A stretch of 35,919 nt of DNA from Escherichia coli. GTDB taxonomy: Bacteria > Pseudomonadota > Gammaproteobacteria > Enterobacterales > Enterobacteriaceae. The notes beneath the pieces were generated by a model, which was not told where the DNA came from, ran no database searches, and saw nothing but the letters and a program-made list of their open reading frames with translations. Positions 17,929 through 28,469 of this stretch are shown piece after piece (within the stretch, counting starts at the first letter, position 1; every line of letters starts with the position of its first letter). The stretch lies in the NCBI RefSeq assembly GCF_003334305.1, contig NZ_QOWS01000032.1. One strand, written 5' to 3'. The position numbers and the translations under genes were made by a program.

Positions 17929-18257
17929 ATGTTTAACCGACCGAACCGCAACGACGTTGATGATGGCGTGCAGGATATCCAGAATGATGTCAATCAATTA
18001 GCTGACAGCCTCGAATCTGTATTAAAGTCCTGGGCAGCGACGCCAAAGGGGAAGCTGAAGCCGCACGCAGTAAAGCTCAGGCATTGCTGAAAGAAACCAG
18101 GGCGCGAATGCATGGTCGTACTCGCGTCCAGCAAGCCGCACGCGATGCCGTTGGCTGCGCGGATTCTTTTGTTCGTGAAAGACCCTGGTGTAGCGTGGGT
18201 ACAGCAGCTGCGGTAGGTATTTTTATCGGCGCACTGTTAAGCATGCGCAAATCGTAG
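17929..18257 (+). pseudogene. ygaM: ElaB/YqjD-family (DUF883) ribosome- and membrane-associated protein, interrupted by an apparent 1-nt frameshift in this sequence
   Basis: ATG 17929 with GGGGGA Shine-Dalgarno. N-terminal frame reads MFNRPNRNDVDDGVQDIQNDVNQLADSLESVLKSW, then runs into TGA at 18088..18090. A second frame reads GSDAKGEAEAARSKAQALLKETRARMHGRTRVQQAARDAVGCADSFVRERPWCSVGTAAAVGIFIGALLSMRKS* to TAG at 18255..18257. The frames meet at the GGG run at 18032..18034. Confidence 0.7.
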
Positions 18258-24914: not shown

Positions 24915-25907
24915 ATGCGACATAGCGTACTTTTTGCGACAGCGTTTGCCACGCTTATCTCTACACAAACTTTTGCTGCCGATCTGCCGGGCAAAGGTAT
25001 TACTGTAAATCCAGTTCAAAGCACCATCACCGAAGAAACCTTCCAGACGCTGCTGGTCAGCCGTGCGCTGGAGAAATTAGGCTATACCGTCAACAAACCC
25101 AGCGAAGTAGATTACAACGTTGGCTACACCTCGCTTGCTTCCGGCGATGCAACCTTCACCGCCGTGAACTGGACGCCACTGCATGACAACATGTACGAAG
25201 CTGCCGGTGGCGATAAGAAATTTTATCGTGAAGGGGTATTTGTTAACGGCGCGGCACAGGGTTACCTGATCGATAAGAAAACCGCCGACCAGTACAAAAT
25301 CACCAACATCGCACAACTGAAAGATCCGAAGATCGCCAAACTGTTCGATACCAACGGCGACGGAAAAGCGGATTTAACCGGTTGTAACCCTGGCTGGGGC
25401 TGCGAAGGTGCCATCAACCACCAGCTTGCCGCGTATGAACTGACCCATACCGTGACGCATAATCAGGGGAACTACGCGGCGATGATGGCCGACACCATCA
25501 GTCGCTACAAAGAGGGCAAACCGGTGTTTTACTACACCTGGACGCCGTACTGGGTGAGTAATGAGCTGAAGCCAGGGAAAGATGTGGTCTGGTTGCAGGT
25601 GCCGTTCTCCGCACTGCCGGGCGATAAAAACGCCGATACCAAACTGCCGAATGGTGCGAATTATGGCTTCCCGGTCAGCACCATGCATATCGTTGCCAAC
25701 AAAGCCTGGGCCGAGAAAAACCCGGCAGCAGCGAAACTGTTTGCCATTATGCAGTTGCCAGTGGCAGATATTAACGCCCAGAACGCCATTATGCATGACG
25801 GCAAAGCCTCAGAAGGCGATATTCAGGGCCATGTTGATGGCTGGATCAAAGCCCACCAGCAGCAGTTCGATGGCTGGGTGAATGAGGCGCTGGCAGCGCA
25901 GAAGTAA
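24915..25907 (+). CDS. proX: Glycine betaine/proline periplasmic substrate-binding protein, 330 aa
   Basis: ATG 24915 with AAAGGAA Shine-Dalgarno. Signal peptide [21 protein letters not shown] followed by [10 protein letters not shown]... The GTG at 24873 used by the ORF track is rejected. Confidence 0.9.
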
Positions 25908-25916
25908 TTTTTATTC

Positions 25917-25998
25917 GGGCGGATAAGGCGTTTTTGCCTCATCCGCCGCTCTGTACACAATGCCTGATGCGACGCTGACGCGTCTTATCATGCCTACA
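25917..25998. repeat. REP/BIME element downstream of proX (two REP units)
   Basis: gggcggataaggcgtttttgcctcatccgcc and tgcctgatgcgacgctgacgcgtcttatcatgcctaca, imperfect palindromes of REP type. Confidence 0.55.
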
Positions 25999-26098
25999 AA
26001 CCACATCGCACATTTCAACAAGCTATCTTTCATCCCATATTCATCAACATCCGCTATTATTGATTTCCAGCTTAATCATCACCTGATGAACAAAAATA

Positions 26099-27283
26099 AT
26101 GACTAAACCTAATCATGAGCTTAGCCCGGCGCTGATCGTGCTGATGTCTATCGCCACCGGTCTGGCGGTCGCCAGTAACTATTACGCCCAGCCGCTACTC
26201 GACACCATCGCGCGTAACTTTTCCCTTTCCGCCAGTTCGGCAGGCTTTATTGTTACCGCCGCGCAATTGGGCTATGCAGCAGGTCTGCTGTTTCTTGTTC
26301 CCCTCGGTGATATGTTTGAACGCCGCCGCCTGATTGTCTCGATGACCTTACTGGCAGCGGGCGGTATGTTGATTACCGCCAGCAGTCAGTCGCTGGCGAT
26401 GATGCTCCTCGGTACGGCATTAACCGGTTTATTCTCTGTCGTGGCACAAATTCTGGTTCCGCTGGCAGCGACGCTGGCTTCACCGGATAAACGCGGCAAA
26501 GTGGTTGGCACCATTATGAGCGGTCTGCTGTTGGGGATATTGCTGGCACGAACCGTTGCCGGGTTACTGGCAAACCTCGGCGGCTGGCGCACCGTCTTTT
26601 GGGTTGCCTCGGTGTTAATGGCTCTGATGGCGCTAGCATTATGGCGTGGTCTGCCACAAATGAAATCAGAAACCCACCTCAACTACCCACAGTTGTTAGG
26701 TTCCGTTTTCAGCATGTTTATCAGCGATAAGATCCTGCGCACCCGCGCATTGCTGGGCTGCCTGACCTTTGCCAACTTCAGCATTCTCTGGACCTCAATG
26801 GCCTTTTTGCTTGCCGCTCCACCTTTTAACTACAGCGATGGTGTCATTGGTCTGTTTGGACTTGCGGGAGCTGCCGGAGCGTTGGGCGCTCGTCCGGCGG
26901 GCGGTTTTGCCGATAAGGGTAAATCGCACCACACCACAACTTTCGGTCTGCTGCTGCTATTACTTTCATGGCTGGCGATCTGGTTTGGTCACACTTCCGT
27001 ACTGGCGCTGATTATCGGCATCCTGGTGCTGGATCTCACCGTACAGGGCGTGCATATCACTAACCAGACGGTAATTTATCGAATACACCCTGATGCGCGT
27101 AATCGCCTGACCGCAGGTTACATGACCAGCTACTTTATTGGCGGTGCCGCCGGTTCGCTAATTTCAGCCTCAGCCTGGCAACATGGCGGTTGGGCTGGCG
27201 TTTGTCTGGCTGGCGCGACGATTGCCCTGGTTAACTTACTGGTCTGGTGGCGAGGTTTTCATCGTCAGGAAGCCGCAAATTAA
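26099..27283 (+). CDS. ygaY: MFS-family transporter, 394 aa, intact in this sequence
   Basis: Uninterrupted ORF with about 12 hydrophobic segments and MFS-like loop motifs (GDMFERRR). Confidence 0.75.
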   Translation: MTKPNHELSPALIVLMSIATGLAVASNYYAQPLLDTIARNFSLSASSAGFIVTAAQLGYAAGLLFLVPLGDMFERRRLIVSMTLLAAGGMLITASSQSLAMMLLGTALTGLFSVVAQILVPLAATLASPDKRGKVVGTIMSGLLLGILLARTVAGLLANLGGWRTVFWVASVLMALMALALWRGLPQMKSETHLNYPQLLGSVFSMFISDKILRTRALLGCLTFANFSILWTSMAFLLAAPPFNYSDGVIGLFGLAGAAGALGARPAGGFADKGKSHHTTTFGLLLLLLSWLAIWFGHTSVLALIIGILVLDLTVQGVHITNQTVIYRIHPDARNRLTAGYMTSYFIGGAAGSLISASAWQHGGWAGVCLAGATIALVNLLVWWRGFHRQEAAN

Positions 27284-27406
27284 GCAATCAGCAACCGTTT
27301 TCGTGGCTTTACACTTATAAGGGTGTTAAGAAGCCCATCAGTCTGATAAGGTTAAGATATTCATTCAGTCTATTTATAATATTAACAATCGTTAAGCGTA
27401 CACTCT

Positions 27407-28144
27407 ATGGAAAGCCCTACTCCACAGCCTGCTCCTGGTTCGGCGACCTTCATGGAAGGATGCAAAGACAGTTTACCGATTGTTATTAGTTATATTCCGG
27501 TGGCCTTTGCGTTCGGTCTGAATGCGACCCGTCTGGGATTCTCTCCTCTCGAAAGCGTTTTTTTCTCCTGCATCATTTATGCAGGCGCGAGCCAGTTCGT
27601 CATTACCGCGATGCTGGCAGCCGGGAGTAGTTTGTGGGTTGCTGCACTGACCGTCATGGCAATGGATGTTCGCCATGTGTTGTATGGCCCGTCACTGCGT
27701 AGCCGTATTATTCAGCGTCTGCAAAAATCGAAAACCGCCCTGTGGGCATTTGGCCTGACGGATGAGGTTTTTGCCGCCGCAACCGCAAAACTGGTACGCA
27801 ATAATCGCCGCTGGAGCGAGAACTGGATGATCGGCATTGCCTTCAGTTCATGGTCATCGTGGGTATTTGGTACGGTAATAGGGGCATTCTCCGGCAGCGG
27901 CTTGCTGCAAGGTTATCCCGCCGTTGAAGCTGCATTAGGTTTTATGCTTCCGGCACTCTTTATGAGTTTCCTGCTCGCCTCTTTCCAGCGCAAACAATCT
28001 CTTTGCGTTACCGCAGCGTTAGTTGGTGCCCTTGCAGGCGTAACGCTATTTTCTATTCCCGTCGCCATTCTGGCAGGCATTGTCTGTGGCTGCCTCACTG
28101 CGTTAATCCAGGCATTCTGGCAAGGAGCGCCCGATGAGCTATGA
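27407..28144 (+). CDS. ygaZ: AzlC-family branched-chain amino acid (valine) exporter, large subunit, 245 aa
   Basis: Hydrophobic AzlC-like protein ([26 protein letters not shown]...). Forms an overlapping pair with ygaH. Confidence 0.85.
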
Positions 28145-28469
28145 GGTTCTGCTGCTTGGGTTACTGGTTGGCGTGGCGAATTATTGCTTCCGCTATTTGC
28201 CGCTGCGCCTGCGTGTGGGTAATGCCCGCCCAACCAAACGTGGCGCGGTAGGTATTTTGCTCGACACCATTGGCATCGCCTCGATATGCGCTCTGCTGGT
28301 TGTCTCTACCGCACCAGAAGTGATGCACGATACACGCCGTTTCGTGCCCACGCTGGTCGGCTTCGCGGTACTGGGTGCCAGTTTCTATAAAACACGCAGC
28401 ATTATCATCCCAACACTGCTTAGTGCGCTGGCCTATGGGCTCGCCTGGAAAGTGATGGCGATTATATAA
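28134..28469 (+). CDS. ygaH: AzlD-family exporter small subunit, 111 aa
   Basis: Small hydrophobic protein whose start overlaps the ygaZ 3' end by 11 nt. Confidence 0.85.

Follow-up and report, generated by a model that had tools for sequence, protein, structure and literature searches.

The gene ygaY, carried by the stretch of Escherichia coli DNA analyzed here (35,919 nucleotides, hereafter the window), is very probably present at 26099-27283 as an ancestral, intact and almost certainly functional allele, encoding an MFS protein of the YnfM family whose function is predicted; the reference strain K-12 carries a derived null allele of the same gene. It is also an ordinary, already annotated allele of a known gene. 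The pseudogene status of ygaY in K-12 is already known: RefSeq records it, and published work makes routine use of it, treating the K-12 gene as cryptic or as a pseudogene and its locus as a site for control deletions or neutral integration.

An uninterrupted ygaY frame had been proposed in the initial annotation, and it is borne out by the ORF listing and by direct reading of the sequence: a single ORF of 394 codons runs from ATG to TAA on the + strand. As the chance of such an open run is about 6e-9 per start at a stop frequency of about 3/64, this is not a chance ORF. It occupies the known position of ygaY, flanked by proX on one side and by ygaZ-ygaH-emrR(mprA)-emrAB on the other, within a window that is collinear as a whole with K-12 MG1655 2782288-2818129 (98.2% identity). 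Furthermore, strain A7 (orangutan faeces, USA) matches the window base for base at NZ_CP028767.1 3618587-3654505, where RefSeq names the product of the same coordinates “MFS transporter” (WP_000165724.1), a protein that is also that of the window. Strain H15, in which ygaY is 100% identical to the window gene, carries the WP_000165724.1 protein too. The ygaY of the window is the gene that RefSeq already annotates in A7 and H15, with no difference. The features of the locus, of the protein model and of the rest of the window are collected in Table 1.

Table 1. Features of the ygaY locus, of the predicted YgaY structure (residue numbers) and of other parts of the window (nucleotide positions).
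Feature	Position	Strand	Basis or remark
ygaY CDS, intact, 394 codons + TAA	26099..27283	+	ORF, Pfam, AF2, Foldseek, RefSeq WP_000165724.1
7 bases absent from K-12 MG1655: GGCAGCG (MAFFT placement)	26353..26359	+	alignment, BLAST indel list
proX, upstream neighbour, last gene of proVWX	24915..25907	+	annotation of the identical A7 record
REP-type palindromic element, proX-ygaY spacer	25917..25994	+	Rfam naRNA4 (RF02564), 65.2 bits vs gathering 59.5
AT-rich 5′ region of ygaY, 35% GC	25995..26098	+	composition, allele alignment
Promoter-like site before ygaZ, TTAAGA-17-TATAAT, 10/12 matches	27352-27380		promoter scan
ygaZ-ygaH (L-valine exporter), downstream neighbours	27407..28469	+	annotation
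N-half helices, YgaY model	10-40, 45-71, 75-94, 99-126, 129-161, 163-184		AF2
Short helix in the cytoplasmic loop joining the YgaY halves	196-209		AF2
C-half helices, YgaY model	211-239, 247-272, 276-298, 301-329		AF2
TM11 + TM12, YgaY model, one continuous helical stretch	331-393		AF2
tRNA-Ile (ileY position)	3546..3621		ordinary, K-12 position
MicA sRNA	32592..32663		ordinary, K-12 position
tRNA-Arg array, genes 1 and 2, the latter truncated at the end of the window	35574..35919		ordinary, K-12 position

In MG1655 (NC_000913.3), ygaY (b2681, previously split as b2680/b2681) lies in the same place between proX and ygaZ and is annotated as a pseudogene at 2808316-2809493, with 1178 bp against the 1185 bp of the window; in a K-12 derivative annotated by PGAP it is noted as “frameshifted”. 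The pairwise alignment of the two alleles contains a single gap, of 7 bp in K-12 at gene positions 255-261 (its placement being ambiguous within about 26351-26365), and all the other differences are substitutions. The missing bases cover codons 85-87 in the third transmembrane helix (TM3, residues 75-94 of the model). The window frame stays open across them, with all 1185 bp present, and does not have the K-12-type pseudogene lesion. The K-12 frame splits into ORFs of 88 and 305 aa and, the lesion being inside TM3, neither fragment would be able to form a 12-TM transporter. The statement, made with some reserve in the initial annotation, that ygaY is interrupted in the K-12 reference was accurate, and K-12 does not have the same intact 394-codon ORF.

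The comparison of alleles also gives some indication of how the 7 bp were lost. The intact allele nearest to that of K-12 is found in AR435; apart from the 7 bp, a single SNP separates the two. Where K-12 has its lesion, AR435 reads CTGGCGGCATGCGGCATGTTG, a perfect 7-bp tandem duplication of GCGGCAT of which K-12 keeps one unit; the window allele reads CTGGCAGCGGGCGGTATG at the same site, with no perfect repeat. Given two units in the nearest intact allele and one in K-12, replication slippage is probably the simplest explanation of the lesion: K-12 would have lost one GCGGCAT unit, with a resulting frameshift in TM3 after 87 codons. The tandem-repeat alleles represent about 1 in 7 genomes, as the match to the K-12 junction extends to base 49 in 9 of 60 rows taken at even spacing, and 772 genomes fall within the 95-99% identity band of the 200-bp junction query described below, which was used for the repeat-allele estimate. 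This class of alleles was exposed by a shorter, 56-bp query over the K-12 junction, which was rejected as a coverage-based counter because intact tandem-repeat alleles match it to base 49 (88% coverage). On a small scale, the lesion illustrates how a sequence variant at the synonymous level gives rise to a frameshift hotspot. We did not find the tandem-repeat origin or the population counts stated elsewhere; they are minor details.

Intact ygaY is the norm in the species, and K-12 the exception. Of 5426 complete E. coli genomes, 5419 have a match to the gene, always chromosomal, and the match is full-length in 5414. A 200-bp query across the K-12 deletion junction, read through identity bands, found the K-12 junction in 353 of 5418 genomes (about 6.5%), at >=99% identity over a span of 200 bp; all 56 of the other rows that were sampled had a span of 207 bp and an identity of at most 96.6%, the value that 7 gap columns would give. 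The K-12 lesion is absent from about 93% of complete E. coli genomes, in a census that counts the K-12 junction and no other, rare lesions. The junction carriers sampled by name (ER1709, AML001_par, K1508, PS200 and 11202) have genomes of 4.53-4.69 Mb, K-12-sized or smaller. In turn, an intact 1185-bp ygaY is annotated in the five non-K-12 alleles that were fetched (A7, H15, WP4-S18-ESBL-09, AR435 and BAP1), and orthologues of 394 aa, likewise intact, exist in Shigella, E. marmotae, E. fergusonii (97-98% identity), E. albertii (95-96%) and Citrobacter (93%). The reading of the window gene as an intact allele is correct with respect to K-12, but the allele is not special to the window, since most E. 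coli genomes and the related species have it likewise.

The substitutions that separate these alleles are almost all silent. Leaving the lesion aside, the window and K-12 genes differ by 34 synonymous codons and 1 non-synonymous codon, and the dN/dS of the window gene is 0.017 against AR435 and 0.032 against WP4-S18-ESBL-09. These ratios indicate that ygaY is under strong purifying selection in E. coli and that its loss in K-12 is recent. A further loss was observed in strain PCP06021 (seawater isolate, NZ_CM129877.1; L008 3001..3463), where an independent deletion extends from ygaY codon 53 into ygaH, fusing the first 158 bp of ygaY to ygaH, with the remaining ygaY and the whole of ygaZ gone.

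At the protein level, YgaY matches the Pfam family MFS_1 (PF07690) twice, over residues 17-289 (E 2.4e-32) and 218-385 (E 3.7e-11), and a match in each half constitutes the two-halves signature of an MFS protein. A search of the PDB by sequence returned weak matches limited to the N-terminal half, the best of them being the glucose/H+ symporter GlcP (4lds, E 5.7e-8), which made a comparison of folds necessary. An exhaustive HMMER search gave 1145 cluster representatives at E <= 1e-30, and the structure was predicted from an alignment of YgaY with 101 full-length homologues (102 sequences). The resulting AlphaFold2 (AF2) model, a predicted and not a solved structure, has a mean pLDDT of 95.5 and a pTM of 0.93, and presents 12 long helices in two groups of six. 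A crude Kyte-Doolittle scan reveals 9-10 clear hydrophobic peaks, an under-count due to adjacent or glycine-rich helices that merge or fall under the threshold, and it was set aside in favor of the 12 TM helices of the model. Over the whole chain, Foldseek aligns the model with SotB (6kkk), MdfA (6euq/4zp0) and NorA (8tte), with TM-scores of 0.80-0.85 and rmsd values of 2.3-4.4 A. The 12-TMS architecture that the initial annotation had read from hydrophobic periodicity is well supported by the model and by a Foldseek TM-score of 0.84 to SotB/MdfA.

Profile searches are less informative about function. No NCBIfam model matches YgaY above its curated cut-off, all scores being far below, so that there is no characterised equivalog from which a functional name could be taken. 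The best of these matches is TIGR00895 (aromatic acid/H+ symport; E 6.9e-22, N-terminal half, far under the cut-off). Membership of the DHA1 drug:H+ antiporters (TCDB 2.A.1.2) by profile score was considered and rejected, YgaY lying far below every cut-off: 50.4 bits for TIGR00710 Bcr/CflA (cut-off 200.9), 37.2 for EmrD NF008654 (479) and 53.1 for Cmx/CmrA (400). MFS antiporters carry in TM5 the antiporter motif C, G-x8-G-x3-G-P-x2-G-G. In YgaY TM5 the G133-x8-G142-x3-G146 portion is present, followed by I147 in place of P and by A150-R151 in place of GG, i.e., half of the motif. The TM2-TM3 loop reads P68-L-G70-D71-M-F-E-R-R-R-L, with a spacing off that of the canonical motif A (G-x3-D-[RK]-x-G-R-[RK]); among the 102 homologues P68 is invariant and G70 and D71 are at least 90% conserved. 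A copy nearer to motif A, G-G-F-A-D272-K-G-K, is found in the TM8-TM9 loop.

The family assignment comes from full-length homology. According to PMC5417439, the TCDB number of E. coli YgaY (P76628) is 2.A.1.36.3, which belongs to the YnfM family, and BLASTP aligns YgaY with K-12 YnfM over the full length (394 of 417 residues) at 26% identity (E 1e-20). Judged by its sequence, YgaY is a 394-residue MFS protein of the YnfM family (TCDB 2.A.1.36), with a predicted location in the inner membrane.

The regions flanking the gene were also analyzed. Inverted repeats at 25918-25947 lie within the REP-type element that separates ygaY from proVWX. Closer to the gene, the last 91 bp before the start codon contain one variable column in an alignment of four divergent alleles whose coding regions differ by dS 0.13-0.18; this near-invariance of the AT-rich 5′ region suggests a constrained regulatory or nucleoid-protein binding region. 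The promoter scan found no consensus sigma-70 promoter upstream of ygaY, and the terminator scan found no terminator after it, three terminator-like matches not exceeding the shuffled expectation. The 123-bp gap between ygaY and ygaZ contains a promoter-like site. In addition, a six-codon mini-ORF (ATG AAC AAA AAT AAT GAC TAA; 26086..26106) overlaps the ygaY start in another frame; the stretch is identical in the four aligned alleles, which may be a coincidence.

Regarding expression, in the study of proVWX regulation by H-NS and StpA, K-12 ygaY transcripts were detectable and went up after hyperosmotic shock, by 11-fold in an stpA mutant, and ygaY DNA was described as an anchor for H-NS bridging with the downstream regulatory element of proVWX. 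The latter role is independent of the reading frame. Considering that ygaY is directly downstream of the osmotically induced proVWX, that its transcript rises after hyperosmotic shock and that its upstream region is unusually conserved, it could be proposed, as a long shot, that YgaY has a real role as a stress-linked exporter of a small organic solute, which may have gone unstudied given the K-12 defect. If this were true, wild-type alleles like that of the window would be the reagent needed for finding the substrate.

Irrespective of any link with stress, YgaY would act by alternating access as a proton-coupled secondary transporter and most likely exports a small organic solute. This proposal of a proton-coupled exporter, our best guess, is based on the nearest structural relatives, SotB, MdfA and NorA, all of them exporters, and on the paralogue YnfM. 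It is possible, if rather doubtful, that the same gene and fold work in the opposite direction, YgaY being an importer (a solute/H+ symporter), as would be in line with the symport model TIGR00895 as best NCBIfam match, with the symporter GlcP as best PDB sequence match and with the incomplete motif C in TM5. Nevertheless, those symporter matches extend over no more than the generic N-terminal half of an MFS protein, DHA1 exporters come first in the whole-structure comparison, and YnfM, from which the family takes its name, is reported in PMC12622518 to export glutarate by proton coupling in both Corynebacterium and E. coli BL21(DE3). Export of glutarate itself by YgaY, suggested by the analogy with YnfM and by the nearby glaH-lhgO-gabDTP-csiR cluster, was set aside: the cluster is about 12-19 kb from ygaY, and deletion of ynfM alone abolished glutarate export in BL21(DE3) (PMC12622518), despite the intact ygaY found in the BL21 derivative BAP1, which makes glutarate an unlikely YgaY substrate there. 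A functional or transport study of intact YgaY was not found in the searchable literature. The neighborhoods of two distant homologues (57% and 49% identity) differ entirely from one another and from the E. coli locus, and they offer no substrate clue.

Leaving aside the direction of transport, two further readings were weighed. The difference between the two alleles could be an artefact, the K-12 reference being missequenced or misassembled, or the window containing an error. This was considered because the nearby ygaM has a singleton homopolymer frameshift, and nothing was found in its favor: 353 independent assemblies agree on the K-12 junction and the other ~5065 on the 207-bp form, the window gene is 100% identical to that of H15, and the lesion measures 7 bp in a non-homopolymer context. 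The probability of an artefact is negligible, the H15 identity and the junction census having already refuted it. Alternatively, ygaY could be open yet functionless or silent in the species, a cryptic gene drifting to loss of which K-12 would be the first to show a lesion. K-12 indeed grows normally without ygaY, the locus is used as a neutral site or control deletion, a consensus promoter was not found upstream, and PCP06021 has independently lost most of ygaY, together with ygaZ. However, such a drift is very improbable in the face of a dN/dS of 0.017-0.032 among E. coli alleles, a synonymous to non-synonymous ratio of 34:1, a 394-aa length conserved, with proteins 93-98% identical, in Citrobacter and in five Escherichia species, the absence of the K-12 lesion from about 93% of complete genomes, and transcripts that are detectable even in K-12. 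An intact, selected transporter gene, tentatively of an exporter, is the reading that we retain.

Several other differences were observed elsewhere in the window. In ygaM (17929..18257), which encodes a tail-anchored membrane protein of the DUF883 family, one G is lost from a GGGG run at about 18031, and the resulting frameshift leaves ORFs of 57 + 57 aa. The gene is intact in K-12 (113-aa ORF; 330-bp annotated CDS of 109 codons) and in H15, a strain 99.98% identical, and the exact 80-mer of the window ygaM occurs in 1 of 5426 complete genomes, that of strain A7. Either the mutation is private to this strain or the homopolymer was misread in sequencing. The gene ygaQ (alpha-amylase family; 4181..6434) is a pseudogene both in the window and in K-12, by different lesions: in the window one extra T is present at about 5821, whose removal restores an ORF of 750 codons, and in K-12 there is no frameshift but three in-frame TAG (codons 111, 346 and 614), each of them TGG (Trp) in the window. 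Three independent TGG-to-TAG changes make a curious pattern.

At the start of the window, the end of an IS3-family transposase gene occupies the first 69 bases and abuts a truncated ypjA/ehaD autotransporter gene (69..509) whose C-terminus is missing; ypjA is full-length in K-12, and the alignment with MG1655 ends here. Finally, the region 1422..2794 is one frameshifted DUF5507 gene in RefSeq, where K-12 annotates two, ypjB and ypjC. At about position 2186 of the window, a G inside a T-run differs in this region, with TTTTTTTT in the window versus TTTTGTTTT in K-12.

As thousands of genomes already have ygaY annotated and the pseudogene of K-12 is on record, the finding of an intact allele matters very little in itself. 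Its consequences are rather of a practical order. Results obtained in K-12 say nothing on the function of YgaY, and the practice of treating the “ygaY pseudogene” as neutral ground for integration does not transfer to B strains or wild isolates, which have an intact gene that is under strong purifying selection.

Compared with known transporters, YgaY shares the 12-TM MFS architecture and the TCDB family with YnfM (E. coli b1596). YnfM is a distant paralogue at another locus, where it adjoins the LysR-type regulator gene ynfL, whereas ygaY is without an adjacent regulator. The likeness to SotB, MdfA and NorA, DHA1 drug/sugar:H+ antiporters, is one of fold, the sequence identity of these proteins to YgaY being just 15-18%.
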